Part shown: positions 13,563 to 44,780 of the stretch, in pieces
Layout of the letters: each line of letters starts with the position of its first letter
Numbering within the stretch: the stretch's first letter is position 1
Virus record (IMG/VR): IMGVR_UViG_2974569193_000001
Coordinates: 108,702-172,701 of that record
Length of the DNA stretch: 64,000 nt
Reading direction: 5' to 3' (one strand)
From: a virus
Taxonomy: Duplodnaviria > Heunggongvirae > Uroviricota > Caudoviricetes
The notes under the pieces: generated by a model
Told to the model about the DNA's origin: nothing
Databases searched by the model: none
Seen by the model: only the letters and a program-made list of their open reading frames with translations
Made by a program: the position numbers and the translations under genes

Positions 13563-14024
13563 ATGACCACCCTGATCGAACAACTCCGCAACGACGCCCT
13601 GGCCGCGCGCAAGGCCGCCGTCAAGAAGGAAGCCGGCGGCGAGCACGCCGCGCTCCTGGCCTCGGTCGCGTCCGACGCCACCATGATCGGCAAGAACGAC
13701 CGGGCCGCGCCCGGCCGCGAGCCGACCGATGACGAAACCGCCAAGGTCGTGAAGAAGTACATCGCCGGCCTGGAGACCTCGATCGAGGCGGCCCGCAGCG
13801 AGGAGGAGCGTTCGCGCTTCATCGTCGAGAAGCGGCGCCTGGAGGGCTTCCTGCCGCAGATGCTCGATGGCGGTCATCTGACCGATGCGATCCACGTCAC
13901 CCTGGCCAAGCTGGGCGTCGAGCGCGACGTCAAGAGCACCAAGGCGGTGGTCGCCGATCTGCAAGAGACCTATCCCGGTCAGATTGACCCGGCGGCCGTC
14001 TCGCGCTACCTTCGCAACGTCTGA
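13563..14024 (+). CDS. GatB/YqeY domain-containing protein
   Basis: 153 aa. Pattern DEETAKVVKKYIAGLETSIEAAR...EKRRLEGFLPQMLDG...KSTKAVVADLQETYPGQIDPAAVSRYLRN matches the YqeY fold. Confidence 0.6.
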   Translation: MTTLIEQLRNDALAARKAAVKKEAGGEHAALLASVASDATMIGKNDRAAPGREPTDDETAKVVKKYIAGLETSIEAARSEEERSRFIVEKRRLEGFLPQMLDGGHLTDAIHVTLAKLGVERDVKSTKAVVADLQETYPGQIDPAAVSRYLRNV

Positions 14025-21518: not shown

Positions 21519-22949
21519 TCAGGCGATCTCATAGCCAGCGGCGACGCGCTCGCGGATTTGGTCCAGCGTCGTCGGCTCCAGCACCTTGCCGGTGTTGAAG
21601 ACCTCGTCCAGCAGATCGTGCTCGACGACGTCGCCCTCGTGGACCGTGATGGTCTCGAAGCCGCCGGCCTCGTTGGTCACCAGGGCCAGCTTGCCCTTCT
21701 TGGAGACCTTGCCCGGATCGGTGATGGGGTCCTTGAAGATGTCGACCCACTCGCCGTTGATCTCTTGGGCCGACGACTTCATCGCCCACTTGTTGGTGTC
21801 GCGGTCCAGGTCGCCCGTCGCCAGACCACCGCCGGCCGCCGTCATGATGCTGTCGGGCGCGATGCCCAGGTCGCGACCCAGATAGAACGGGTCCATGTGG
21901 GTGTGCTCGTTCATGCCGTCGCCCTGGAGGACCTTGGCGTTCAGGTTGAGCACGTCCAGACCCTTGCTGTTGCGTTGGGTCCCGAAGCCGTCGGCCATGA
22001 TCTTGAGCACCGGCGGGATGACCTCGCCCAGCTTGCCGCTATCGGGACGGCAGACGATCGTGATGTTCTTGTTGGCGATCAGGTCCTTGAACTTCACCAG
22101 CTTGCGGGTGAACTCGAAGATGTTCCAGGTGTCGCCGACCAGCGAGACGATCGAACCAGCCGGCGCCCGGTTCAGGCAGTGCTCGATGTATTCGTCGTCG
22201 TTGTCGCGCCCGAACGAGCAGGAGATCGAGTGCTCGGTGGCCAGCACCGAGTAGGCCGACATCTCGCTGAAGTAGTTGATGTTCGCCGCGCGCACGGCCG
22301 GGACGTTGTCCGAGCCCTGGAAGTGGTAGAGGTGCGCGATGCCGGCCAGGACCGAGTGATCATAGCCCATGGTGCCGCGCGAGGAGAAGTCCAGGAAAGC
22401 GAACGGCGACATCGGCGTGTCGCTGGTGAGGTCCCAGAAGCTCTTGATCCGCGACGCGATGTTGTTGACGCGCGCGGCGATCGTCGAGGCCGTCCAGACG
22501 TCGCGCAGGATCATGGTCTCGAAGTACGAGGTCAGCCAGGGCAGGCGCGGGTCGAGGTTCTCGACGCTGATCAGGGCGTTCTTGACCGGGATCATCATGC
22601 CCTCGGGCACGGCCTTGATGCGCAGCGGCAGGTAGCCGCCGTACTCGTTCAGGATGATCTCCCAGCCGTCGCGGTTGAACGGCAGGCCGTGGGCCGGCAC
22701 GAACACGGCCATCTCGTCGATGTCGGCGCGGGTGATCGGCTTGCAGAGCTTCTGGAAGAGCAGGCGCTGGAACGCGGCCAGCATCACCTTGGGGTAACGC
22801 CCGCCCCGGCTCTCGATGTAGCTGTAGACGGTGGTGCAGCCGTCGCGATAGAGCACCCAGTGCCCCAGCTTGTAGCTGTCGGTGTCGGCGATCAGGTTGT
22901 AGGTCTCGACGGGAGCGACCCCGTCCCATTTGGCGATGTCGAAGGCCAT
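21519..22949 (-). CDS. nadV: nicotinamide phosphoribosyltransferase (NAMPT/NadV)
   Basis: 476 aa. N-terminal DTDSYKLGHW (NAPRTase-family DSYK..H signature) and overall NAMPT-like length. Antisense ORFs 21558..22970 are artefacts. Confidence 0.85.
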   Translation of the reverse strand: MAFDIAKWDGVAPVETYNLIADTDSYKLGHWVLYRDGCTTVYSYIESRGGRYPKVMLAAFQRLLFQKLCKPITRADIDEMAVFVPAHGLPFNRDGWEIILNEYGGYLPLRIKAVPEGMMIPVKNALISVENLDPRLPWLTSYFETMILRDVWTASTIAARVNNIASRIKSFWDLTSDTPMSPFAFLDFSSRGTMGYDHSVLAGIAHLYHFQGSDNVPAVRAANINYFSEMSAYSVLATEHSISCSFGRDNDDEYIEHCLNRAPAGSIVSLVGDTWNIFEFTRKLVKFKDLIANKNITIVCRPDSGKLGEVIPPVLKIMADGFGTQRNSKGLDVLNLNAKVLQGDGMNEHTHMDPFYLGRDLGIAPDSIMTAAGGGLATGDLDRDTNKWAMKSSAQEINGEWVDIFKDPITDPGKVSKKGKLALVTNEAGGFETITVHEGDVVEHDLLDEVFNTGKVLEPTTLDQIRERVAAGYEIA

Positions 22950-22959
22950 GATGTCCCCT

Positions 22960-24183
22960 TTATGCGTTGAGGCTGAGCATGCGGTCCACGATGAAGGCGT
23001 GGTCCTCGAAGGTGTTGGACGGGTCGATCTCGGAGATCGGGTCCCAGTCGGCGGCGGCGGCGTCGTCGTGCCCCTTGACCACCGGCAGGCTCAGGCCCAG
23101 CGCCGGCGGCGGGATGAGGAAGTGGAAAGCGGTCGAGATGATGTGGGCGCGCCGCGAGCGGTGCGGATCGTCAAAGACCTGGGGCTCGCCGACCAGGAAG
23201 CGGCGAAGCTCCTCCATGGCCTTGACCACGTAGCCCGGCGCGGCCGGCGGGCGCAGGCCCAGCTTCTCGGCCTGCTTGCAGGCGGCGAGCCAGTGGACGA
23301 AGTTGGGATAGTCCCGCTCGGAAATGAACAGCGCGGTCTCTTCGATGATCTCGCGCAGGCAGTTGGCCAGCAGCGAGGAGCCGGCGTTGACGAAGCCGCC
23401 GGGCAGGGCCTTCATGCCCAGCCCCTCGGCGCCGCCGCGCTCGATCCGCAGAACGTGACCGGCGCACTCGACCACGCCGTCGACGGCCAGGAACGGACCC
23501 GGCCCCCAGCGTTCGCGGTAGGCGTCCTCGGCCTTCTTCTGGTCGAGCAGGTAGGCGTAGACCTTCTTGTCGCGGAACCGCTCCAGGAAGTCGATGGTGC
23601 TCGGATAGAGCAGATCGGTCCAGGCATGGCCCCGGTCGCTCCAGGCGGTGTCGCGGAAGTTGACCCCGCCGGCGAAGTAGGCTTGACGCAGAGCCGTGGC
23701 GTTGACGCCGTTGTCCTCGACCGGGGTATAGGGCCATTGCGGGAACCAAGTCAGGTATTCGCTGGTGGCGTCGCGGACGTTGCCGATCAGGGTGACGCGC
23801 GGGCGCAGCACCTTGGTGGCGTTCTTGACGTGCTGCTGGACCTGGGCGATCCACTCGTTCTTGCCATAGGGGCCGGTGTCGTTGAGCGCGATCACCTCGG
23901 TGTTCGACAGGTGATGCAGGATGCGCTCGCCGGTGATCTCGACATCGCTATCTTCGACCTCCTCGCGGGCCAGATCGCTGAGCCCGTTGAGGATCATCTC
24001 CTTGCGTTCCTCGAACACGAAGGGATTGCGCGTGTCGCGGGCGAGGTTGGCCGAGCCGATGAACCAGAGGACCTTGCGGGCCTTCTTGCGCGCCGCCTGA
24101 TACAGGCGGAAGTGGCCGAGCTTGGTCGGCATTTGCGCCCGCGTGATCAGCACCGCGATGTCGTACTCGAAATCCACCATCAC
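22960..24183 (-). CDS. natV: bifunctional NMN adenylyltransferase / Nudix ADP-ribose pyrophosphatase (NatV/NadM-like)
   Basis: 407 aa. N-terminal nucleotidyltransferase region (VLITRAQMPTKLGHFRLYQ). C-terminal Nudix box GGFVNAGSSLLANCLREIIEETAL. Confidence 0.8.
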   Translation of the reverse strand: MMVDFEYDIAVLITRAQMPTKLGHFRLYQAARKKARKVLWFIGSANLARDTRNPFVFEERKEMILNGLSDLAREEVEDSDVEITGERILHHLSNTEVIALNDTGPYGKNEWIAQVQQHVKNATKVLRPRVTLIGNVRDATSEYLTWFPQWPYTPVEDNGVNATALRQAYFAGGVNFRDTAWSDRGHAWTDLLYPSTIDFLERFRDKKVYAYLLDQKKAEDAYRERWGPGPFLAVDGVVECAGHVLRIERGGAEGLGMKALPGGFVNAGSSLLANCLREIIEETALFISERDYPNFVHWLAACKQAEKLGLRPPAAPGYVVKAMEELRRFLVGEPQVFDDPHRSRRAHIISTAFHFLIPPPALGLSLPVVKGHDDAAAADWDPISEIDPSNTFEDHAFIVDRMLSLNA

Positions 24184-24635
24184 CTCCTAAAGGCCGGGCG
24201 GATGCGCCGGGCCGGCTTGTTCTCGGTCAATTCCCGCCCGCTGAAGGGCGGGAAGGAAAGCTCGCTGATGCCGTTCTGCCGGATGGCGAACTGGCGCTTC
24301 TTGGTGTCGATCCCGTCGAGGTGCGTGCTGCGCCGCCGCTCGATGAGTTCGAGGTCGACGACGTCACCAAACACCTTGCCGTGGAAAATCTGCCGCCGCG
24401 CCCAGGTGATGGCCGAACCCAGGTGCTCGAAGGTCCTGGTCTTCTCGGCCTCCAGGAGGCTGGCGCCGTCATGGAAGGACGGGTCCACCCACGACAGCTT
24501 GATTTCCCGCGCCGGGAGAGACTTGACCAGGACGTTGATGGGCTCGTAGCCGAAACGCTGGGCAAAGTCGCCCACGTCGTAGCTCTCGATGTCCAGCACC
24601 ACCATGGTGATCGGCTTGGTCGTTACGGACGACAC
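24180..24635 (-). CDS. hypothetical protein
   Basis: 151 aa; GTG start directly after an AAGCGTTGACAAAGCC promoter, possibly leaderless. Confidence 0.5.
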   Translation of the reverse strand: MSSVTTKPITMVVLDIESYDVGDFAQRFGYEPINVLVKSLPAREIKLSWVDPSFHDGASLLEAEKTRTFEHLGSAITWARRQIFHGKVFGDVVDLELIERRRSTHLDGIDTKKRQFAIRQNGISELSFPPFSGRELTENKPARRIRPAFRR

Positions 24636-24665
24636 TATCGATTTCCCTCCGGCTTTGTCAACGCT
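24636..24665 (-). promoter_or_regulatory. second-class promoter AAGCGTTGACAAAGCC, possibly leaderless
   Basis: An identical 16-mer AAGCGTTGACAAAGCC, 17 bp, then ATAGTG, where the GTG is the start codon of gene 24180..24635. Confidence 0.45.
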
Positions 24666-25142
24666 TTAACGCAGGAGCTTGAGCGAGGCCGGCGCGTGGT
24701 ACTTGAACGACGACTCGGTGATCGGTCCAATTCCGACGAAGGTCACGGTGGGCTTGTCGAAAACGGTCCGGCCGGCGTCCACGACCAGGGTCGCGCCAGA
24801 GTAATCGCGGAACCGCTCGTAGAGGGCTTCCAGTTCTTCGTTGGTGCCGGTGTGGAGCGCGATCTTCGCCGCCGACTGCGAGTAGCGGTACTGGCGCGCG
24901 GTCTTCGGAAATCGCTCCATGGCGTCCCACCACGCATGCAGATAGGCGTGTCCAGCCTGGGCGGAGAGCTTGCCGATGTTAAGGGACTTGTCCTCCGGCT
25001 TGCGGCTGCGCTTGGCCACGGTCATCGCGTCGAGCGCTTCCTGGCTGACGATGGCGTAGAGTCGCAGTTCCGCCTTGGGCTTGCCGGCGAAGCAGGCCAT
25101 CAGAAGGTCCCAGGCGTGCAGCCAGTTGTCGATGAATTTCAT
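24666..25142 (-). CDS. pth2: peptidyl-tRNA hydrolase, PTH2 family
   Basis: 158 aa. GKLSAQAGHA (Pth2 GKxAAQxxHA) and C-terminal TLVVDAGRTVF...TFVGIGP...LKLL match Pth2. Confidence 0.7.
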   Translation of the reverse strand: MKFIDNWLHAWDLLMACFAGKPKAELRLYAIVSQEALDAMTVAKRSRKPEDKSLNIGKLSAQAGHAYLHAWWDAMERFPKTARQYRYSQSAAKIALHTGTNEELEALYERFRDYSGATLVVDAGRTVFDKPTVTFVGIGPITESSFKYHAPASLKLLR

Positions 25143-25582
25143 GCCCGCAAGGCCCTTTCATAGTGATCCTCCAGCGCGATGGCCGCGTCGAAGGCGATGT
25201 CGATGAGGTCCTCGTTGATGATGACCTCGCAGGAGCGATGGAGGCTGACCATCGCCAGGGATTCGTAGGCCTTGTTGAGGGCGCTCAGCGTCTTGAGGTT
25301 CAGGGCCAGACGATCCAGCAGCTTGACGCCATAGACCTCAGGGCCGAATGGTCCCTTGTGGGTGTAGAGCCGTTTCTTGACCTTCGGGAAGGTCTCCCAG
25401 TCCTTGACGTGCAGGTCGGCCATCAGGTCGGCGGTCTGCTCGATCAGCACCACATAGCGCATCAGCTTGCGCAAGCGCGCCTGGATGTCGTCGGACTTGG
25501 CCGTCGGCGGAGGATCGCGACAATCCTCCGCCTCATAGGCCGCCAGCATCCGCGCTCGATACAGAACGTCGGCGATCGCCAC
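25139..25582 (-). CDS. hypothetical protein
   Basis: 147 aa; ATGA overlap with pth2. Confidence 0.5.
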   Translation of the reverse strand: MAIADVLYRARMLAAYEAEDCRDPPPTAKSDDIQARLRKLMRYVVLIEQTADLMADLHVKDWETFPKVKKRLYTHKGPFGPEVYGVKLLDRLALNLKTLSALNKAYESLAMVSLHRSCEVIINEDLIDIAFDAAIALEDHYERALRA

Positions 25583-25585
25583 CGA

Positions 25586-26017
25586 TTAGGCCTCGGGGGT
25601 CGGGGCTTCGGTTTCCGGCTCGGCGGTGGTCTTGGCCTTACCCTTGGCGCCCGTCGTCGGCGAAGCCTGCGGCTCGTCAACCATCGGCGCGGCCGGCGTC
25701 TCGACCTGCACCGGCTCGACGTCGGCCGGGACGTCGACCGCCGCGTAGTCGGCCTCGAACGCGGCCGGCTTCAGGATCAGCATCTCGTAGTCGTTCTCGC
25801 CGCGCGGGATGCGCACGATGTAGTCGTCCTGGGTCGCCGAGGCGATCTGGCCGTTGATCGGCACCAGCAGCTTGCCGACCGCATCCTTGCCGACGCTCAT
25901 GGTGCCCATGGCGGTGTAGGCGGAGTGCTTGGTCAGCCATTCCGGCAGGTCTTCCAGGCGCTGGAAGGTGTATTGGACCGCGTCGACGGTCACGGGCAGG
26001 CGGGTGTACTTGCTCAA
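25586..26017 (-). CDS. hypothetical protein
   Basis: 143 aa; TTG start with SD AGGAG; acidic P/E/T-rich tail. Confidence 0.5.
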   Translation of the reverse strand: MSKYTRLPVTVDAVQYTFQRLEDLPEWLTKHSAYTAMGTMSVGKDAVGKLLVPINGQIASATQDDYIVRIPRGENDYEMLILKPAAFEADYAAVDVPADVEPVQVETPAAPMVDEPQASPTTGAKGKAKTTAEPETEAPTPEA

Positions 26018-26026
26018 GGATAGCTC

Positions 26027-26611
26027 CTACTGGGGTTGGGCCGGCGCCGGGATGGCGAAGGCAAGGGATTGTTCGACCAGGGCCAAGAGGTCGGTTACCA
26101 GCTTGGGATTGAGGTCGTCCTCGGTCAGGGCGGCGGCGACGGCGTTGATCCGCGACCACGTGAAGTCCTCGGTCAGGCCAAGGTTGTGGAGGCGCAGCAG
26201 GGTCTCGCCGTGGATCGCCACGACGCCGGAAAGGTCACGCAGGTTGCGCAAGGTCAGCAGCCGCTCGGAAAGCATCTTGATCGCGCTGCCCGAGGGCGCC
26301 AGGAGCAGGCGCATCCAGTCGCCGCCGGGGTCGTCGCCCCGGCGCAGGTCCGGATGGTCCAGGGTCGCGCCCCAGATCACCGCGTGGGCTTTGGCGGCCA
26401 GCGACTGCCGGCGCTTGGCGATGGCCTCGGCTTCCTTGGCTTCGCGCTGGGCGGTCAGGAAGGTGGCGATGATCGCCGAGGGAAAGATCGCCACGAGGAA
26501 GAAGGCGAGGCGGTCGGTCCAGACCGCGTGCGGCGTGATCACGTTCATGGCCGTGCCGATCAGCACCGTGGGATAGATCAGGCCGCCGTGGCGGTGGATG
26601 AACTTGATCAT
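26027..26611 (-). CDS. membrane protein
   Basis: 194 aa with two N-terminal transmembrane segments. Preceded by a cassette promoter; a GGCCTCCG/CGGAGGCC hairpin in the leader contains the SD. Confidence 0.55.
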   Translation of the reverse strand: MIKFIHRHGGLIYPTVLIGTAMNVITPHAVWTDRLAFFLVAIFPSAIIATFLTAQREAKEAEAIAKRRQSLAAKAHAVIWGATLDHPDLRRGDDPGGDWMRLLLAPSGSAIKMLSERLLTLRNLRDLSGVVAIHGETLLRLHNLGLTEDFTWSRINAVAAALTEDDLNPKLVTDLLALVEQSLAFAIPAPAQPQ

Positions 26612-26674
26612 GAAAAGGGCCTCCGGCGTTGTCGTCGGAGGCCCTTCTAGCGAGTCGGTGTCAGGCTGTCAACA
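26612..26674 (-). promoter_or_regulatory. cassette promoter with a hairpin leader
   Basis: GTGTTGACAG, 17 bp, TAGAAG, then GGCCTCCG-ACGACAACG-CCGGAGGCC (an 8-bp stem that sequesters the SD), then CTTTTC-ATG. Confidence 0.55.
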
Positions 26675-26678
26675 CATG

Positions 26679-27293
26679 TCAGCCAGCCGCAGCCACCAAC
26701 TTCTCGATGCGGTTGAAGCCCAGTTCGAGCCGGCCCCAGAAGGCGCTCGGCACGTGCGGCTTGACGACCTCGGTGAAGCGCGCGCGCTCCTTGAGGTACA
26801 TCTTGGCCATGCCCAGGTGAGGCGCCTGGGTCGCCGGGTCCTTGATCGACGCCTCGACGTTGGCGATCCGGTCGGCCAGCTTCAGGATGCAGGCCTCGGG
26901 GTTCTCGCCGAGCTTGCGATAGATGTCCTCGTTGCGGGACTTGCGGTTGGGACCGATGCCCGAGACCGCCCAGACCAGCGCCGCGACGCGGTCGCCGAAC
27001 TTGTCCTCGATCATCTGACGGCGGGCCTCGGGCGTCATGTCGAGGTGGGTGTCCTCGATCACGTCGTGCAGCTTGGCCGCCGCCGTCCAGGTGAAGCCGG
27101 CATAGCCGAAATCGTCCAGGATGCGCTCGACCTTCTGGAGGTGGTAGAGGTAGGGCTGGCCGGCGTACTGCTGATCGCCGTGCGCGGCGATGGCGAACTT
27201 CGTCGGGTCCTCCTGGTGGAAGCCGCCGGGCGCGCCGACGTCCGCCATCAGGTTGGCCAGTTGGTCGGGATCGGACAGGGGCGTGTCGGTCAT
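26679..27293 (-). CDS. HD-domain small alarmone hydrolase ((p)ppGpp hydrolase, SpoT/Mesh1-like)
   Basis: 204 aa. AAHGDQQYAGQPYLYHLQKV ... LHDVIEDT matches the RelA/SpoT hydrolase HD motif (H..GQ.R..G.PY..H ... LHD..EDT). Confidence 0.75.
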   Translation of the reverse strand: MTDTPLSDPDQLANLMADVGAPGGFHQEDPTKFAIAAHGDQQYAGQPYLYHLQKVERILDDFGYAGFTWTAAAKLHDVIEDTHLDMTPEARRQMIEDKFGDRVAALVWAVSGIGPNRKSRNEDIYRKLGENPEACILKLADRIANVEASIKDPATQAPHLGMAKMYLKERARFTEVVKPHVPSAFWGRLELGFNRIEKLVAAAG

Positions 27294-27697
27294 GACGTTT
27301 TCTCGGGGATCAGGGTGAAGACTTCCACGCCCTCGTCGATGCGCATGTGGTGCGTCGGCGGGTGGGCGGGGTTGTAGCGGATGTAGCCGGCGAGGCCGCC
27401 GTCGATCATCGCGCCGCCGCGCTCCTGGTAGTCGTGGCGGAAGCGCGAGACCAGGAACGAGCCATCGGCGAGCTTGATGGCCGAGAACACCGCCTCGCGG
27501 ATCGAGGCCGCCGAGGTAATGTAGACGCCCTCTTTGAGGGGATGGACGAACAACCCGAAGTAGTTGTCGTGGCCCTGCGACCGATCCGGCGTCTCGGTGT
27601 AGAAGACGTAGAACGGACCCTCCCGATCGGGGAGGTCATAGTAGCCCACGTACTTGGCGTTGTAGCGCTCTTCGGCGACTTTGACGTTGATGCCCAT
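27290..27697 (-). CDS. hypothetical protein
   Basis: 135 aa; ATGA overlap with the SAH gene. Confidence 0.5.
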   Translation of the reverse strand: MGINVKVAEERYNAKYVGYYDLPDREGPFYVFYTETPDRSQGHDNYFGLFVHPLKEGVYITSAASIREAVFSAIKLADGSFLVSRFRHDYQERGGAMIDGGLAGYIRYNPAHPPTHHMRIDEGVEVFTLIPEKTS

Positions 27698-28197
27698 CAG
27701 GCGACCCTCAGGAATTCACCCCACGCGGGGGCGGCGTATTTCAGATAGGCCTCGTGCGCGGCCTCCGGCGTACTATAGCGTCCCAGGAAGCGATAGACAC
27801 CATGAATGGTGATCTGGGCCTGGAACGGCTTGCTCTTGCATCGGCACTTGGTCACGCCCTTGGGCAGGGCGCCGATCGGGCGGCGGTTGACGAGGTTCTG
27901 CGACCGCGTGGCCTTCCGGAGGTTCTTGATCCGGTTGTTGCGGCGGTTGCAGTCCTCGTGGTCGACGTCATGGTCGGGGACGACCCCGTGGTGGAGCGCC
28001 CAGGCCAGCTTGTGGGCGGCGATCTGGATGCGGCGGCCCTCGTAGGGGACCTTGATCACCCGGTAGCCGTCCTGGTTGACCGTGCCCAGGCGCTTGCGGG
28101 TCTTGGAACCCCGCAGATAGATGGCGCCGGACGAGGCCTCATAGCGGTAGCGCGCCTTGAGGTACTCGACCGGGATGACGTACTCTGCCCCCGACAT
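27697..28197 (-). CDS. HNH homing endonuclease with C-terminal AP2 DNA-binding domain
   Basis: Start at MSGAEYVIPVEY (SD AAGGA). HNH motif AHKLAWALHHG...HEDCNRRNNRIKNL; AP2-like KCRCKSKPFQAQITIHGVYRFLGRYSTPEAAHEAYLKYA. Confidence 0.75.
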   Translation of the reverse strand: MSGAEYVIPVEYLKARYRYEASSGAIYLRGSKTRKRLGTVNQDGYRVIKVPYEGRRIQIAAHKLAWALHHGVVPDHDVDHEDCNRRNNRIKNLRKATRSQNLVNRRPIGALPKGVTKCRCKSKPFQAQITIHGVYRFLGRYSTPEAAHEAYLKYAAPAWGEFLRVA

Positions 28198-28201
28198 GGG
28201 A

Positions 28202-28441
28202 TCAATCCTTCTTGGCGTACCGCTTGAAGAGGAGATAGAAGCCATAGGCGACCAGCGCCCCGAGCCAGCAGAACCACAGGATCGCCGCCTGCCCCAGGGT
28301 CATGAAGAAGAACCCGATCTTCCAGTCGTCGTTGAACCGGTTCTCCCGGTTCTCCCGGACCTGGGGGTAGTCGATGGCGTAGCGGTAGCCGATCCTGGCC
28401 AAAGCGATCAGGCCGCCCAGGATGAAATAGATGTCCTGCAT
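28202..28441 (-). CDS. small membrane protein
   Basis: 79 aa, two predicted transmembrane helices. Confidence 0.5.
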   Translation of the reverse strand: MQDIYFILGGLIALARIGYRYAIDYPQVRENRENRFNDDWKIGFFFMTLGQAAILWFCWLGALVAYGFYLLFKRYAKKD

Positions 28442-28448
28442 GGCGGAC

Positions 28449-28724
28449 CTACTTCGTCGAGGCGTTGTCGAGGGCGTCGACGCCCTTTTCAGCCAGGGCG
28501 CCCAGCTTCTTGCGCACGAAGAAGAACACGCCGGCCCAGAAGCCCAGGAACAGCGCCAGCGGCCAGATCAGGCCGATGATGATCCCGGCGATGCCGAAGA
28601 AGAAGCAGTAGACGCCGATGCCTTCGTAGTCGGTGATCCCCAGCTTGCGGAACACCGCCGGGAAGACGGTCGCGGCGGCGGCCCAGACGCCGGCGCAGAT
28701 GAAGAGCGCGGTGAGGAAATACAT
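28449..28724 (-). CDS. small membrane protein
   Basis: 91 aa, two or three transmembrane helices, FFF/GIAG-rich. Confidence 0.5.
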   Translation of the reverse strand: MYFLTALFICAGVWAAAATVFPAVFRKLGITDYEGIGVYCFFFGIAGIIIGLIWPLALFLGFWAGVFFFVRKKLGALAEKGVDALDNASTK

Positions 28725-29026
28725 CAGGTCGGTTCCTTTTCGAGCCCGTGATCGGGGTCGTACTTGACGAGGATGCCGTCTTCGTTCCGGTGCTCCATCA
28801 GGGGCAGGCCGGAGACGAACTGCGGCACGAAGAGGTCGCGGCGCGGCTGCTGGAGCCAGATGAGGCCGGTCTCGGCCACCTGCGCGCGCTCGGCCGGCGA
28901 AAGCTCCCAGCAGGAGATCACACCCTCGGGGCCGGTGTAGGTGTGCAGCGGGATGACCGAGTCCTCGTTGCCCGGCGCCGGGTTCCAGACCTTGTTGGAG
29001 CCGGCGAAGTTACGCGGCGTGGCCAT
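28724..29026 (-). CDS. hypothetical protein
   Basis: 100 aa soluble protein in the membrane-gene cluster. Confidence 0.5.
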   Translation of the reverse strand: MATPRNFAGSNKVWNPAPGNEDSVIPLHTYTGPEGVISCWELSPAERAQVAETGLIWLQQPRRDLFVPQFVSGLPLMEHRNEDGILVKYDPDHGLEKEPT

Positions 29027-29258
29027 GTTTGGACCCCTTGTTGACGAAGAACCAGATCGCCAGCGCGATCAGGAAGCCGGGCACGGCCAGGGGCCACGCG
29101 AAGGTGACTCCCAGGAAGACGAAGACGCCCAAGAAGACCGCACCGACCGCGTCGGAGAGCTTGAGCACCCCGTCCTTGGTCTCGTGCTTGATCGCCCAAA
29201 AGAGCGCGCCCAGGCCGGCAATCACGCCGACGACGAGAGAGAAGAGGATGTACTTCAA
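29010..29258 (-). CDS. small membrane protein
   Basis: 82 aa, two or three transmembrane helices. Confidence 0.5.
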   Translation of the reverse strand: MKYILFSLVVGVIAGLGALFWAIKHETKDGVLKLSDAVGAVFLGVFVFLGVTFAWPLAVPGFLIALAIWFFVNKGSKHGHAA

Positions 29259-29638
29259 AGCAGCCCCGCCGCCTGCTTGGCGGCCTCCTTAGCTTGAACC
29301 TTCTCGTGGGAGAGGGTCTTGACGCGGTTGATCTCGTCGGCTTCGCAGCCGTCGGCGCTGATCCCGAGGTTCTCGCAAAGCGTGTAGAGTGACAGCAGCA
29401 GCCCGCCGACCTCCTCCTTGACCTCGCCGACCGGGCGGCTGAAGGTCCATTCGGCTTGGCGGATCACATCTTCCTTCGTCAGGCCCTGGGTCTGGACGAG
29501 TTCCATGCACTCCTCCAGCGTCCGGAAAGCCTGGATGCGGCGGTTGAAGACGCGGCCCGTCAGGACCTCCTCAACCCACTTCCAGCACCACGTCTGACGC
29601 TTGGCCCGGTGCTCGTGGCACGCGTCCACCTCGGTCAT
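29255..29638 (-). CDS. mazG: MazG-like nucleoside triphosphate pyrophosphohydrolase
   Basis: Genuine C-terminal 127 aa of the chimeric 601-aa ORF 29255..31060. EEVGGLLLSLYTLCENLGISADGCEADEINRV matches the all-alpha NTP-PPase EE.GDLL ... D.E motif. Start at MTEVDACHEH overlaps the TGA of a small upstream ORF as TGATG. Confidence 0.6.
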   Translation of the reverse strand: MTEVDACHEHRAKRQTWCWKWVEEVLTGRVFNRRIQAFRTLEECMELVQTQGLTKEDVIRQAEWTFSRPVGEVKEEVGGLLLSLYTLCENLGISADGCEADEINRVKTLSHEKVQAKEAAKQAAGLL

Positions 29639-29781
29639 CACTTGCCCCATCCGAAAGCCTTCCACAGAGATTGGCCGGTGTCGCGCGAGCAGCGCCACGG
29701 GCGGATGACGAGGACCGAGGCGATGACGGCGACGATCATGTAGATCGCCGCCGCCCGCCCGAGGATGTCGAGCAACGCCAT
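29638..29781 (-). CDS. small hydrophobic peptide (47 aa), not in the ORF track
   Basis: MALLDILGRAAAIYMIVAVIASVLVIRPWRCSRDTGQSLWKAFGWGK. ATG lies 3 nt after the rtcB stop and its stop overlaps the mazG start. One transmembrane helix. Confidence 0.35.
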   Translation of the reverse strand: MALLDILGRAAAIYMIVAVIASVLVIRPWRCSRDTGQSLWKAFGWGK

Positions 29782-29784
29782 CGA

Positions 29785-31017
29785 CTAGCCCTTCACGCAG
29801 AGGACTTGCTTCAGGGTGTGGACGATGTCCACGAGGTCCTTCTGCGCCTCCATGACCGCGTCGATGTCCTTGTAGGCCATCGGGATTTCGTCGATCACGC
29901 CGATGTCCTTGCGGCACTCGACGCCTTCGGTCGCCTTGATCTGGTCTTCCAGCGTGAAGGCCGCCTTGGCGGCGGTGCGCGACATGGTCCGGCCCGCGCC
30001 GTGCGAGCACGAGCAGAACGAGTCGGCGTTGCCCTTGCCGCGCACGATGTAGGACTTGGCCCCCATCGAGCCGGGGATGATGCCGAACTGGTCCTTCTGA
30101 GCCGACACCGCGCCCTTGCGGGTCACGAAGACCCACTCGTCGAAGTGGAACTCCTTCTGGACGTAGTTGTGGTGGCAGTTCACCGCTTCCTTGTCCGTCT
30201 TGAAGGGCGGCAGGCCCGAGGCGCGCATGGCGTCCAGGACCCGGATCATCATCATCTCGCGGTTGATCCGCGCGAAGTCCTGGCCCCAGGCGACGGCTTC
30301 CACGTAGTCGTAGAATTCCGGCTCGCCTTCCGACAGCCACGCGAGGTCCTTGTCGAGCGGCTTCTGGCCGTCCCGACGCAGCATCATCTCCTTGGCCTTC
30401 TCGATGAAGATACGACCGATGGTGTTGCCGACGCCGCGCGAGCCCGAGTGGAGCATCACCCAGACGCGCTGGTCCTCGTCGAGGCAGACCTCGATGAAGT
30501 GGTTGCCGCCGCCCAGCGTGCCCAGTTGGACGACGCTGTTGGCGTTCTTGAGGGCCTTGTACTTGTCGCAGAGCTTCTCGAACCGAGCCTCCAGGCCCGA
30601 GTCGACCCACTTGCGCATGATCGAGTTCGGGATGCCGCTGCGCCCGTTCCAGCCGCCCGACGGACCCGGCCCGCCGTGCGGGACGGCGTGCTCGATCAGC
30701 GAGCGCAGCTTGGCGAGGCTGTCGGGCAGGTCCGAGGCCGTCAGCGAGGTGCGCACGGCCATCATGCCGCAGCCGATGTCCACGCCCACGGCCGCCGGGA
30801 TGATGGCGCCCTTGGTCGGGATCACCGAGCCCACGGTCGAGCCGATGCCCATGTGGACGTCCGGCATCAGGGCCACGTGCGAATGGATGAACGGCAGGGC
30901 GGCGAGGTTGTGCGCCTGCACCTGGGCGGGTTGTTCGAAGGTCACGCCCCGGACCCAGGCCTTGATCACCCCGCCGTTCCAGCCGGTGATCTCTTCGTAT
31001 TGGGTCTCGGCGGTCAT
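29785..31017 (-). CDS. rtcB: RNA-splicing ligase RtcB
   Basis: 410 aa. RtcB hallmarks: HSHVALMPDVHMGIGSTVGSVIP, GGGNHFIE, HSGSRG, NCHHNYV, SCSHGAGR. Cassette promoter upstream. Confidence 0.9.
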   Translation of the reverse strand: MTAETQYEEITGWNGGVIKAWVRGVTFEQPAQVQAHNLAALPFIHSHVALMPDVHMGIGSTVGSVIPTKGAIIPAAVGVDIGCGMMAVRTSLTASDLPDSLAKLRSLIEHAVPHGGPGPSGGWNGRSGIPNSIMRKWVDSGLEARFEKLCDKYKALKNANSVVQLGTLGGGNHFIEVCLDEDQRVWVMLHSGSRGVGNTIGRIFIEKAKEMMLRRDGQKPLDKDLAWLSEGEPEFYDYVEAVAWGQDFARINREMMMIRVLDAMRASGLPPFKTDKEAVNCHHNYVQKEFHFDEWVFVTRKGAVSAQKDQFGIIPGSMGAKSYIVRGKGNADSFCSCSHGAGRTMSRTAAKAAFTLEDQIKATEGVECRKDIGVIDEIPMAYKDIDAVMEAQKDLVDIVHTLKQVLCVKG

Positions 31018-31081
31018 GTGCTCCTCGCTGCCGTTGTCGTGATTTACGACTTTTGACCACGCCCTTCGTCGTCTGTCAACA
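31018..31081 (-). promoter_or_regulatory. cassette-type promoter for rtcB
   Basis: Minus strand GTGTTGACAG with TTGACA at about 31074-31079. Confidence 0.45.
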
Positions 31082-31364
31082 CACCTTCGACCGCTTCGAT
31101 CTGGATTTGCAGCGTCGTCCTGGCGATGCTCAGCGGCGGGAGTTGCTCACCGACAAGCTTCATGTCCCCCAGGGCGTAGAGCAGGGTGTCGTAGAACTCG
31201 GCCTCCGAGCCCCCGACGTTGAGCCGCTCCTGGATATGGGTGATCCGGGCCTGGAGGACGCGGGCGCGATCATCGTTGGGCAGGAGCGAGGCCTCGACCT
31301 GGGCGATCGCCTCGACGGTGTCTCGCAGCATGCTGCGGTAGGTGTTCTGACGCGGGGTACTCAT
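31044..31364 (-). CDS. hypothetical protein
   Basis: Trimmed to MSTPRQNTYRS... (107 aa). The R/G/P-rich N-terminus of ORF 31044..31613 is rejected. Start overlaps the TGA of the small ORF upstream as ATGA. Confidence 0.5.
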   Translation of the reverse strand: MSTPRQNTYRSMLRDTVEAIAQVEASLLPNDDRARVLQARITHIQERLNVGGSEAEFYDTLLYALGDMKLVGEQLPPLSIARTTLQIQIEAVEGVLTDDEGRGQKS

Positions 31365-31465
31365 GGGATCGCCTTCAGCAGTTGGAGAATGGCCGCCCAG
31401 AGCGCCAGATCGGCGAGCACGGCCAGGAAGAGTTCGTAGTTCAGACGGTAGCCCTTGTGGGTCAT
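31361..31465 (-). CDS. small hydrophobic peptide (34 aa), not in the ORF track
   Basis: MTHKGYRLNYELFLAVLADLALWAAILQLLKAIP. Lies just downstream of a minus-strand terminator and is coupled (ATGA) to the next gene. Confidence 0.3.
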   Translation of the reverse strand: MTHKGYRLNYELFLAVLADLALWAAILQLLKAIP

Positions 31466-31485
31466 CGTTGCCTCCCTGAAACGAA

Positions 31486-31522
31486 AAACGCCGGCGAGAG
31501 GGTCCCGCCGGCGTTTCCTTAG
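31486..31522 (-). terminator. rho-independent terminator (minus strand)
   Basis: Minus strand ACGCCGGCG-ggaccctct-CGCCGGCGT followed by TTTTTCGTTTC; lies after the SPFH gene. Confidence 0.6.
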
Positions 31523-31552
31523 TCCACAGTCGTGCGGCTGGGCCGCGCCGAC

Positions 31553-32383
31553 TTACTTCACGTTGACGAAGGGAACCGCGCCGCCGGTCGTGGTCGGCAG
31601 ACGACCGTCCCACTTCTCGATCGCCTTCAGTTCGACGATCTGCGGGCTGGCCGCGATCGACGCCGCCAGCAGACGGTTCGATTCGGCTTGACCACGGGCT
31701 TCTTCGATCGCCGCGTTGGCGCGCGCCTTGGCGACTTCGACCTGGGCCGTGGCGGACACGGTGTCGGCGTCAGCCTTGGTCTTGGCCTGGATCGAGTCGA
31801 GGATCACCTGCGGGTAGCGGATGTTGCCGATCCAGTCGAGTTGGCTGATCGTCACGCCTTCCTTCGCCCACTTGTGCTGGACGCTGGCGAGGGCCTTCTG
31901 GATCACCTGCTGCCGGCCGCCCTTGTACAGGAACTCGACCGACACCAGTTCGGTCTCGCGGGCGATGGCCGAGCGCACGTCGTTGCGGATCGGACCTTCG
32001 AACAGTTGGTCGAACGACAGCCGGTACTTCTTGTAGAGCGCCGGCGCCGCCGCCGAGTCGACGCGCATGACGAGTTGGACGTCGGCGGTCATCGGCAGAG
32101 CGTTGTTGTCCGAGAACGTGACTTCTTCGTTCTCGGCGCCGCGCTCGTCGGAGTCCTTGGTGTAGGTGTAGGTGCGTTGGATCGCCGGGTAGTCGACGAT
32201 CTTCTCGCCGAAGCTGTTGAAGTGCATGCCCGAGGACAGCGGCGCCGGATCGACGCCTTGGCCGCCGACGGTGCGGATTTTCACGCCGACATTGCCGGGC
32301 TCGACCGTATGCCAGCCGCAGGCCGAGAGGGAAGCGCCTAGGCCCATCAGGGCCACGGCGGTCAGAATTGCCTTAATTTTCAA
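31553..32383 (-). CDS. SPFH/band-7 (prohibitin/HflKC-like) lipoprotein
   Basis: 276 aa. Signal peptide with lipobox LSAC; SPFH-like core. TTG start with SD AAGGAG. Followed by a hairpin terminator. Confidence 0.7.
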   Translation of the reverse strand: MKIKAILTAVALMGLGASLSACGWHTVEPGNVGVKIRTVGGQGVDPAPLSSGMHFNSFGEKIVDYPAIQRTYTYTKDSDERGAENEEVTFSDNNALPMTADVQLVMRVDSAAAPALYKKYRLSFDQLFEGPIRNDVRSAIARETELVSVEFLYKGGRQQVIQKALASVQHKWAKEGVTISQLDWIGNIRYPQVILDSIQAKTKADADTVSATAQVEVAKARANAAIEEARGQAESNRLLAASIAASPQIVELKAIEKWDGRLPTTTGGAVPFVNVK

Positions 32384-43687: not shown

Positions 43688-44353
43688 CTAACGCCAGACC
43701 CAACTCAAGCTGAGCACGATGTCGTGGTCCTCGTAGGCGGCGCTGCGGCCGGTGATCAGCTTGATTCCGCGCAGAGGACCCAGGCGCCACAGTTGCACCT
43801 CGCGCCGCTCATGGCGACCAGGGACGTGCTCCAGCAGTTCGCGGCGCTTGATCGCCACGTGCTTTTGCTCCCGGTGGACGACCAGGGCGATCTTGTGGGT
43901 CGGGCTTGCGCCGAACCACCGCCGCCAGTAGCCCGGCGTATCGATGTCGTCGAACAGGCGCTCGACGCGCTTGCTGACCGGACGCAGCCCCGACATGCTT
44001 CGCCGCACGCTCAGCGGCGGGAAGGTGCAGGACGGCCAGACATCGAGCAGGCCCTGACGCAGCCGGCGAAATTCCTCCGCCGGCATGGCGTTGTCCTTGG
44101 TGTTGTTGCACGCCACGCAGGCCGCCGCGACATTGCTGTCGTGGTTGGAGCCGCCCTCGGCCTTGGCTTCCAGGTGTTCGATCGTGACCTCGTCCGGTTC
44201 CAGATTGCCGGCCTTCTTGCCGACGCGCTGGCGGTATTTCATCTGCCCCGTGCAGTAGGTGCAGAGCCCACCCGATTCCAGGAAGAGCCGGCGCCGGCGG
44301 TTTGGAGCCGCCGGCGGGAGAGGATCGTAGACGATGACGTCAGAGGACGACAT
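43688..44353 (-). CDS. HNH endonuclease
   Basis: Start at MSSSDVIVYD. CTYCTGQM...TIEHLEAKAEGGSNHDSNVAAACVACNNTK is an HNH motif. The upstream R/S-rich 52 aa are rejected. Confidence 0.7.
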   Translation of the reverse strand: MSSSDVIVYDPLPPAAPNRRRRLFLESGGLCTYCTGQMKYRQRVGKKAGNLEPDEVTIEHLEAKAEGGSNHDSNVAAACVACNNTKDNAMPAEEFRRLRQGLLDVWPSCTFPPLSVRRSMSGLRPVSKRVERLFDDIDTPGYWRRWFGASPTHKIALVVHREQKHVAIKRRELLEHVPGRHERREVQLWRLGPLRGIKLITGRSAAYEDHDIVLSLSWVWR

Positions 44354-44780
44354 AGCTGTCCTCGCCGGTCTCGAACGCGAGATCAGCGAAACGCAGGTTT
44401 TCCAGGGCGGTGTTGAACGCCTCCTCCGAGCCGCCGACCTTGGCCCAGATCGACCGGCGGGGGACCACCGTGGCGAAGAGGTTGGGCGAACGCCCCTGGC
44501 GGACTTCATCGGCGGCGAGATCGACGAGCACGCGATAGGCCGCGCCCGACACCGTCTGGCGGCTGCGGACGTCGACGAGGCTCAGACCCCGCAGGGTGTC
44601 CAGATAGGCGCTCAGGTCCTTGATCTCGACGCCGGCCGTCATGGCGAAGGTCGTCGGATTGGTGTCGAGCACCTTCAGCGACTCGGCGCGCCGCAGGACG
44701 ACCTCCTCGCGGGCCTCGATCTCCAGTTGCTCGTCCGACTTCTTCTCGGCTTGCTTGATCTTGCGCAGGGGCTTCAGCAT
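44340..44780 (-). CDS. hypothetical protein
   Basis: Start at MLKPLRKIKQ with SD AGGAG, 9 nt after the upstream TAG. Confidence 0.5.
   Translation of the reverse strand: MLKPLRKIKQAEKKSDEQLEIEAREEVVLRRAESLKVLDTNPTTFAMTAGVEIKDLSAYLDTLRGLSLVDVRSRQTVSGAAYRVLVDLAADEVRQGRSPNLFATVVPRRSIWAKVGGSEEAFNTALENLRFADLAFETGEDSYVVL

Follow-up and report, generated by a model that had tools for sequence, protein, structure and literature searches.

The DNA analysed here, hereafter the window, is a stretch of 64,000 nucleotides from the viral record IMGVR_UViG_2974569193_000001 (positions 108,702 to 172,701; a window position is the record position minus 108701). This study concerns one of its genes, gp252, whose product is, by family, modelled fold and intact active site, a stand-alone small alarmone hydrolase (SAH) of the RelA/SpoT homologue (RSH) type. 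The 10 kb around the gene (window 22000-32000) are 100% identical to Caulobacter phage CcrBL10, a phiCbK-like siphovirus of approximately 221 kb which belongs to the genus Poindextervirus in the subfamily Dolichocephalovirinae. The gene forms part of one long block, reaching from a GcrA-like regulator (gp193) down to rIIA/rIIB, in which all genes are on the minus strand. Within this block, an HNH endonuclease gene (gp250) and a small gene coding for a conserved N-terminal domain (gp247) are found upstream of gp252, and a promoter-like motif with a hairpin directly follows its stop codon.

gp252 is related to RSH hydrolases

The first-pass annotation of the window described a stand-alone protein of 204 residues with the hydrolase HD motif of RelA/SpoT enzymes. 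This description was borne out: the ATG-to-stop reading frame occupies exactly the interval proposed, the translation carries AAHGDQQYAGQPYLYH and KLHDVIEDT, and both profiles and fold agree with the assignment. With the Pfam model HD_4 (PF13328), which had been suggested as a check, gp252 scored 37.6 bits (E 2.3e-9), above the gathering score of 27.2, whereas the generic HD model PF01966 gave a weak match under its cut-off. As these two were the only Pfam matches, and no synthetase, TGS or ACT domain was found, gp252 is a single-domain protein. The NCBIfam model TIGR00691 (spoT_relA) matched in its hydrolase region only (profile positions 4-120 of 687, E 1.6e-12), and PHROG 990, named 'metal-dependent phosphohydrolase', matched with an E value of 3.9e-48. 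In the PDB, the top sequence match was the SAH of P. aeruginosa (6z3n, E 6e-7), followed by Rel, SpoT, Lmo0812 and MESH1.

The AlphaFold (AF2) model of gp252 has a mean pLDDT of 92.6. The conserved hydrolase covers approximately residues 26-204, and residues 1-25 form a lineage-specific leader modelled with low confidence (pLDDT 58-66 over the first 25 or so residues). When the model was compared with the PDB using Foldseek, the top 37 matches were all SAHs, MESH1, Aph1 or Rel/SpoT hydrolase domains, with TM-scores to SAHs of approximately 0.65-0.75. The deposited labels of the protein (YP_009808995) are only 'metal-dependent phosphohydrolase' and 'putative HD/PDEase-like protein'. Together with the match to PF01966 below its cut-off, they would suit a generic phosphohydrolase of the HD kind, such as a dNTPase or a nucleotidase, or even an inactive remnant, the likeness to RSH enzymes then being of superfamily level only. 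We regard this as highly improbable. It is HD_4 and not PF01966 that exceeds its cut-off, non-RSH HD proteins such as YpgQ and PgpH appear in the Foldseek list from rank 38 on and with E > 0.1, and the RSH-specific E-D pair and the D-R-x-x-N motif are invariant in the family, as described below. Decay is also argued against by purifying selection, with a dN/dS of 0.28 relative to phiCbK and of 0.28-0.41 over three orthologues (rough Nei-Gojobori estimates in a GC-rich genome). In several phiCbK-like records (KY555142-KY555147, JX163858, ON529858), the orthologues are labelled 'GTP pyrophosphokinase' or 'SpoT/RelA family (p)ppGpp synthetase I'; since the protein has a hydrolase domain only, these labels are wrong.

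No toxic small alarmone synthetase (toxSAS) was found beside gp252: Pfam gave no match for the products of gp251, gp253, gp254, gp255 and gp257, and the annotation of the window names none of them as a synthetase. The PADLOC defence profiles likewise gave no match for gp252 or five of its neighbours. A type IV antitoxin of the ATfaRel kind, namely the SAH of a toxSAS operon, was considered for gp252 and rejected, as no synthetase gene is adjacent.

Active site and comparison with characterized enzymes

Conservation was assessed in an alignment of 34 homologues with identities down to 38%. Residues H38, H51, H76, D77, E80, D81, K138, D141, R142 and N145 are invariant; they contain the RSH-specific E-D pair three residues past the H-D motif, and the D-R-x-x-N motif. 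We take H51, H76-D77 and D141 to be the metal ligands, equivalent to H53, H77-D78 and D144 of RelSeq, and E80-D81 to be the catalytic ED pair. The metal-binding histidine and aspartate residues, whose absence from an alignment had been named in the first-pass annotation as the argument against its assignment, are therefore all in place. Judging from these residues, gp252 is most likely a catalytically competent, divalent-metal-dependent 3'-pyrophosphohydrolase.

The residues in contact with the base are R43-R44-S45 in TtRel, which hydrolyses (p)ppGpp, and D24-K25-A26 in Aph1, which is specific for (p)ppApp (PMC10083569). The corresponding positions of gp252, mapped via HMMER alignments to the PDB matches and via the family alignment, are Q42-Y43-A44, with Y43 invariant, versus T-L-S in the dual-specificity enzyme PaSAH. 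The latter (6yvc, 6z3n) is the best solved match of gp252 in sequence and also in fold (E 1.5e-5, TM-score 0.64/0.74), with 27% identity, and it shares with gp252 the helical HD fold, C-terminal helices included. Besides the residues at the base contacts, it differs from gp252 in being a chromosomal bacterial enzyme with no associated N-domain. The hydrolase domain of the long RSHs Rel and SpoT (1vj7, 6s2t, 7qpr) has the same metal ligands, the same catalytic ED pair and the same TIGR00691 hydrolase region, but gp252 is devoid of their synthetase, TGS and ACT domains and of the guanine-contact triad R-R-S of TtRel.

Aph1 (7smg), which originates from a Bacteroides prophage, resembles gp252 in its association with a phage and in its HD superfamily fold, and was found at rank 25 of the Foldseek list (E 3e-3, TMq 0.47). 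However, Aph1 is shorter and is devoid of C-terminal helix 9 (PMC10083569), whereas gp252 has helices at 160-180 and 183-203 that are modelled with pLDDT > 95. Its signature D-K-A is also replaced by Q-Y-A in gp252, and no (p)ppApp synthetase toxin is adjacent. Given that the C-terminal helices are kept and that the D-K-A signature is lacking, gp252 is not of the Aph1 type.

SAHs have been found in many phages and prophages, and two of them, from the Salmonella phages PVP-SE1 and SSU5, were able to neutralise each of the five toxSAS toxins tested; it was proposed that incoming phages use SAHs to bypass alarmone-mediated defence (Jimmy et al. 2020, PMC7229694). The roles put forward in the first-pass annotation, degradation of (pp)pApp or (p)ppGpp and action against toxSAS toxins, correspond to those demonstrated for such phage SAHs and are plausible for gp252. 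The SSU5 enzyme was found directly by tblastn with gp252 (30.8% identity, E 9e-7). Like gp252, the SAHs of SSU5 (PaSpo) and PVP-SE1 (PbcSpo) are single-domain RSH hydrolases of lytic or large phages, with no adjacent synthetase and with the same HD_4 motifs. In contrast to these two, to which it is approximately 30% identical, gp252 belongs to a clade of its own with an insertion of 7-8 residues after the EDT motif and an N-domain in cis or nearby. Moreover, their activity has been shown by experiment, whereas that of gp252 is predicted, and even the nearest tested SAHs, the PaSpo members SSU5 and PaSAH, share no more than about 27-31% of residues with it.

gp247, the HNH cassette and the fused homologues

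The product of gp247, a gene located five genes upstream of gp252, matches residues 1-77 of CcrColossus gp212 (48% identity, E 3e-21), a protein of 307 residues in which this region precedes an HD_4 hydrolase. The shared domain, hereafter the N-domain, comprises about 75 residues and shows the motif F..G.N...P.G.E..V..L....ISCW.L..EE...V..TG.VW...P..SG. The same fusion of N-domain and HD domain is present in the Brevundimonas jumbo phages Marchewka (279 residues) and Gurke (278 residues), in CcrPW, in nine or more representatives of metagenomic clusters (P0123 to P0130 and P0135) and in P0053. One of the metagenomic proteins, P0124 (480 residues), combines a calcineurin-like phosphoesterase domain (Metallophos), the N-domain and the HD domain in one chain, an order which mirrors that of the adjacent CcrColossus genes gp213 and gp212. 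A calcineurin-like metallophosphoesterase gene is indeed found next to or near the fused SAH gene in CcrColossus (gp213, L003:5156-5707), Marchewka and Gurke. Stand-alone N-domain proteins of 77-115 residues are common in metagenomes, and all are unannotated. We also noted a second kind of fusion with a nucleotide pyrophosphatase in the SAH family: the metagenomic protein P0072 (307 residues) carries a pyrophosphohydrolase domain of the MazG/PRA-PH type together with an HD_4 SAH domain.

A word-indexed search with gp247 returned just two proteins. The exhaustive HMMER search was performed with a profile of 233 positions (A2) that included the HD columns of its single fused sequence; because these columns were kept, its 1261 matches mix N-domain and HD-only proteins, and they were sorted by the profile positions matched. 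The N-domain of gp247 had no match in Pfam, no fold match in structure comparison and no sequence match in the PDB, where weak matches of the A2 profile fell only in its hydrolase columns. The AF2 model of gp247 has a pLDDT of 86.7, and its dN/dS is 0.18. On these comparative grounds, the N-domain appears to define a new family of accessory domains that is linked to SAHs through recurrent fusions. In Paracoccus phage vB_PmaS-R3, a stand-alone N-domain protein of 101 residues (gp04, L007:3001-3306) is labelled 'putative HD-domain protein' despite the lack of such a domain; this label was probably transferred from fused proteins. Its gene is located between those of a helicase and a DNA polymerase processivity factor.

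In a joint alignment, gp247 and gp252 together cover the fused proteins from one end to the other, and the break falls in the interdomain linker. gp247 spans the N-domain and the linker up to a conserved Y-x-x-D, to which a short C-terminal tail of its own is added, and gp252 resumes, after its own leader of about 24 residues, at (G)FHQEDPTKFA, which is equivalent to (T)HIIEDARRFA in the CcrColossus protein. gp251 had been considered as the fused partner for its overlap with the start of gp252 (its stop codon overlaps the start codon of gp252 by 4 nt, ATGA), but the N-terminus of the CcrColossus protein matches gp247 and not gp251.

Four genes separate gp247 from gp252, one of which is the HNH gene gp250. 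Its product is I-HmuI-like, matching PHROG 99 (E 7.7e-42) and, as sole PDB sequence match, I-HmuI (1u3e, E 1.6e-4). The first-pass annotation had placed an HNH-AP2 homing endonuclease one gene away from the hydrolase. An HNH_3 gene is indeed located one gene upstream, but its AP2 part was not confirmed: no Pfam match to AP2 was obtained at an E limit of 10, although the HMMER filters drop most matches above about 0.1, and the C-terminal region is AP2-like by eye only. The two small hydrophobic proteins gp249 and gp248, which we judged by eye to be membrane proteins, correspond to PHROGs 12079 and 11940 (unknown function) and were detected in phiCbK-like phages only. gp251 is present in phiCbK, Bajun and L013 and absent from the fused lineages, L010 and L012. 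In the fused-gene lineages, none of gp248, gp249, gp250 and gp251 was detectable.

The order of N-domain gene, HNH gene and SAH gene is shared by phiCbK, Brevundimonas phage Bajun and two metagenomic loci, L010 and L013. In L010 the three are directly contiguous, and in L012 the HNH and SAH genes are present and the N-domain gene is lost. Orthologues of gp250 occupy the same place in all phiCbK-like phages examined, Bajun, L010, L012 and L013, and they diverge in step with the SAHs (51-75% versus 46-77% identity). The dN/dS of gp250 is 0.28, with a range of 0.28-0.38 across orthologues. The HNH gene thus appears to be old and vertically inherited rather than recently mobile. This bears on the mobile insertion hotspot that the first-pass annotation had inferred from the proximity of the endonuclease gene, a proposal we do not retain: the HNH gene is syntenic in every member of the clade examined and under purifying selection, and as the locus shows no variation among relatives, it is not a variable hotspot. 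The remark nevertheless points at a real feature, as the aligned genomes place the HNH cassette exactly between two parts that form one open reading frame in sister lineages.

In a neighbour-joining tree of the HD domains (no support values), the clade with split genes and the clade with fused genes are sister groups. The insertion after the EDT motif is common to both, and the other stand-alone homologues do not have it. Our reading is that the N-domain and the hydrolase were already associated in the ancestor of the two clades. In the phiCbK-like branch, a cassette carrying the HNH gene was then most likely inserted into the linker-coding region, splitting the gene, and the arrangement would have been inherited vertically thereafter. 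Fission is preferred because such endonuclease genes are mobile and because the fused form is widely distributed; the alternative is the reverse event, a precise in-frame fusion after loss of the cassette. In view of the fusion in relatives, gp247 probably works together with gp252. The features of the locus are listed in Table 1.

Table 1. Features of the window discussed in the text (window coordinates).
Feature	Position	Strand	Basis or remark
gp252, small alarmone hydrolase (SAH), RSH-type HD domain	26679..27293	-	204-residue ATG-to-stop ORF; HD_4; fold
gp251, 135 residues	27290..27697	-	ORF; PHROG 12504 (unknown function); no Pfam match
gp250, HNH endonuclease (HNH_3, I-HmuI-like)	27697..28197 (longest ORF to 28245)	-	HNH_3 E 4.3e-14
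gp249, small hydrophobic protein	28202-28441	-	ORF in cassette
gp248, small hydrophobic protein	28449-28724	-	ORF in cassette
gp247, small protein with N-domain	28724..29026	-	match to fused CcrColossus gp212
gp243, RtcB RNA ligase	29785..31017	-	RtcB E 4e-123; upstream of gp252 in the co-directional block
Promoter-like motif and hairpin	26617..26672	-	directly after the gp252 stop codon
Copies of the promoter-like motif	5465-5438, 26672-26645, 33764-33737, 43683-43656	all -	motif search of the window
gp256, PTH2-type peptidyl-tRNA hydrolase	24666-25142	-	PF01981 E 4e-14; record label 'hydrolase'
gp258, bifunctional NMN adenylyltransferase (NMNAT)/Nudix	22960-24183	-	adjoins gp259
gp259, Nampt (nicotinamide phosphoribosyltransferase)	21519-22949	-	adjoins gp258

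The intergenic element downstream of gp252

The motif TTGACAG-N14-GCTAGAA begins 7 nt past the stop codon of gp252 and is followed, right after its -10-like element, by a GC-rich hairpin of 13 bp with a UUUUC tail (26644-26617; -38.5 kcal/mol, z -4.3), which abuts the ATG of gp253. The hairpin was found by direct folding; the automatic terminator scan missed it, its T-run comprising only four T. The whole element, from just before the gp252 stop to the gp253 start (26612-26685, minus strand, about 75 nt), is identical in CcrBL10 and phiCbK, whereas the flanking genes are approximately 77-83% identical.

In the form TTGACA(G/C)-N14-GCTAGAA, the motif occurs four times in the window versus 0.03 times expected. 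All copies are on the minus strand and oriented with the gene block, and one is located just upstream of rIIA. The motif resembles what we take to be the Caulobacter sigma-73 consensus, TTGaCgS-N10-14-GCtANAWC. Its sequence and distribution suggest that it is probably a class of phage promoters read by the host RNA polymerase, and the element downstream of gp252 may combine a terminator with an overlapping promoter, or it may form a structure within a 5'-UTR. As the nearest motif upstream of gp252 is the copy at 33764-33737, the predicted transcription unit extends from gp238 via RtcB, gp247, the HNH gene and gp251 to gp252 and ends at the hairpin. The PTH2 gene and the NAD genes are predicted to belong to the following transcription units.

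Genomic neighbourhood and alternative substrates

RtcB is near the SAH gene in phiCbK, CcrColossus, Bajun, Marchewka, Gurke, L010 and L012, and a partial RtcB match is found at the end of L013. With other genes in between, RtcB, SAH and NMNAT/Nudix-Nampt follow one another in this order in CcrBL10, phiCbK, CcrColossus, Bajun, L010, L012 and L013, while PTH2 is present within this block only in CcrBL10, phiCbK and L013. The Nampt and NMNAT/Nudix pair is conserved beside the SAH block in all the Dolichocephalovirinae examined. The PTH2 family, to which gp256 belongs, is typical of archaea and eukaryotes. Together with RtcB and gp271, for which the record annotates a GatB domain (window 13563-14024), gp256 makes up a set of tRNA- and translation-related genes.

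With regard to the substrate of gp252, these neighbours bring two alternatives to alarmone hydrolysis into play. According to the first, gp252 would remove the 3'-pyrophosphate that translation-targeting toxSASs of the CapRel, FaRel2 and PhRel types set on the CCA ends of tRNAs, acting as the end-healing member of a tRNA-repair module with RtcB and, in relatives, with the calcineurin-like phosphoesterase. MESH1 and ATfaRel are known to restore the aminoacylation of tRNA pyrophosphorylated by FaRel2 (Kurata et al., bioRxiv 10.1101/2021.04.30.441581), and the toxSASs neutralised in vivo by phage SAHs include tRNA-targeting ones (PMC7229694). RtcB lies upstream of gp252, is predicted to be transcribed together with it and is a conserved neighbour throughout the examined set of related phages and metagenomic contigs, and PTH2 is encoded four genes downstream. 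The phosphoesterase genes beside the fused SAHs and the chain architecture of P0124 point in the same direction. On the other hand, the promoter-like motif and the hairpin separate the SAH gene from PTH2, no RNA-binding domain was identified, and the N-domain has no recognisable fold. The chemistry is, moreover, the same as in alarmone hydrolysis, so that the sequence cannot tell the two apart. We consider a dedicated role in tRNA repair to be possible, but unlikely.

According to the second, gp252 would resemble MESH1 in being a phosphatase of NADP(H), or of another 2'/3'-phosphorylated nucleotide, and would feed the NAD+ reconstitution of the phage by Nampt and NMNAT/Nudix. The pair Nampt and Nmnat constitutes the counter-defence pathway NARP2, which reconstitutes NAD+ (bioRxiv 10.1101/2024.02.11.579819), and the conserved gene order described above includes both genes. 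Human MESH1 in complex with NADPH or PAPS is also among the best structural matches of gp252 (TM-score approximately 0.65-0.73), and it has been reported as an NADPH phosphatase (bioRxiv 10.1101/2021.04.30.441581). Nevertheless, the best matches in both sequence and fold are bacterial SAHs and not MESH1, the SAH gene is separated from that of NMNAT by five or six others and by at least one promoter-like site, and the homologues of a Nodularia phage and of SSU5 have no NAD genes in the flanks examined. This makes a function in NAD metabolism improbable.

Discussion

We propose that gp252 is active as a 3'-pyrophosphohydrolase of the RSH type and reduces the level of (p)ppGpp, of (p)ppApp or of both during infection, and we assign to this reading a probability of roughly 0.6. 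Its targets in Caulobacter would be the alarmones of the host, (p)ppGpp and perhaps also (p)ppApp, whose 3'-diphosphate it would cleave off, and gp247 would probably assist or regulate it from a separate gene. Removal of the alarmones would prevent an alarmone-mediated shutdown of growth, translation and replication, whether the stringent response of the host SpoT or a toxic alarmone synthetase is the cause of this shutdown. The (p)ppGpp that the single SpoT of Caulobacter produces delays the swarmer-to-stalked transition and blocks the initiation of replication. Since (p)ppGpp gates the cell cycle and phiCbK-like phages carry a GcrA-like regulator, alarmone removal would suit a general programme of host takeover. 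The position of gp252 within a long co-directional block of host-takeover genes, which includes this regulator, RtcB and Nampt/NMNAT, is consistent with such a role.

Several observations weigh against this proposal. The neighbours of gp252 are genes for RNA repair and NAD salvage rather than for the stringent response, and they suit the two alternatives at least as well. The base preference is not readable from the sequence, because Q-Y-A fits neither the R-R-S of TtRel nor the D-K-A of Aph1. RSH hydrolases are also promiscuous, with MESH1 acting on NADPH and some SAHs on pyrophosphorylated tRNA (bioRxiv 10.1101/2021.04.30.441581). Hydrolysis of (p)ppGpp or (p)ppApp, of pyrophosphorylated tRNA and of NADPH share one chemistry, and the residues of gp252 do not separate these readings. 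Finally, our literature search found no paper on the phiCbK-like enzyme or on alarmone hydrolases of Caulobacter phages, and the paper on phiCbK genomics mentions neither the HD gene nor RtcB (PMC3556154).

A more far-reaching possibility combines the split gene with tRNA repair. gp247 and gp252 could be the halves of an undescribed two-component phage enzyme, in which the N-domain would target or regulate the RSH hydrolase. Together with RtcB and, in relatives, the calcineurin-like phosphoesterase, this enzyme would repair tRNA 3'-ends and thereby reverse the pyrophosphorylation caused by toxSASs. The ancestral gene would have been split by the HNH homing endonuclease, with both halves remaining functional. 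We put this combination forward as a speculative and rather unlikely scenario.

Given that the SAH family, its occurrence in phages and its proposed counter-defence role have already been published, and that the gene is annotated, albeit vaguely, in GenBank, gp252 adds to an established kind. If it is simply a (p)ppGpp hydrolase, the finding is an ordinary one, namely a member of a known family with a vague public annotation. What is new at this locus, as read from the genomes, is that the partner domain resides in a separate gene and that an HNH cassette lies between it and the hydrolase. Comparison between genomes further adds the probable fission mediated by the HNH gene, the module of RtcB, SAH and NMNAT/Nudix-Nampt, and the fully conserved promoter-and-hairpin element.

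Phage alarmone hydrolases are among the few candidates for a broad-spectrum counter to alarmone- and toxSAS-based immunity, and to our knowledge no study has dealt with one in a host in which (p)ppGpp gates the cell cycle. Caulobacter and phiCbK make up a tractable pair, and the gene has been kept in those phiCbK-like, Colossus-like and Brevundimonas relatives that were examined, so that phage knock-outs can test its role directly. Through the link with the hydrolase, the N-domain family, common in viral metagenomes, also gains a first clue to its function.

Finally, the arrangement of the locus may exemplify the splitting of a gene by an endonuclease cassette. In T-even phages, nrd and topoisomerase genes are interrupted by free-standing mob or seg endonuclease genes. 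As in these split genes, an HNH gene stands between two open reading frames that are one reading frame in relatives, and both halves are under purifying selection. Unlike in the T-even cases, the cassette of CcrBL10 holds three more genes, the HNH gene appears old and vertically inherited, and the direction of the event, probably fission, is inferred from the comparison of lineages. A second HNH endonuclease gene, gp217, is annotated in the same leftward block (window 43988-44542, minus strand).

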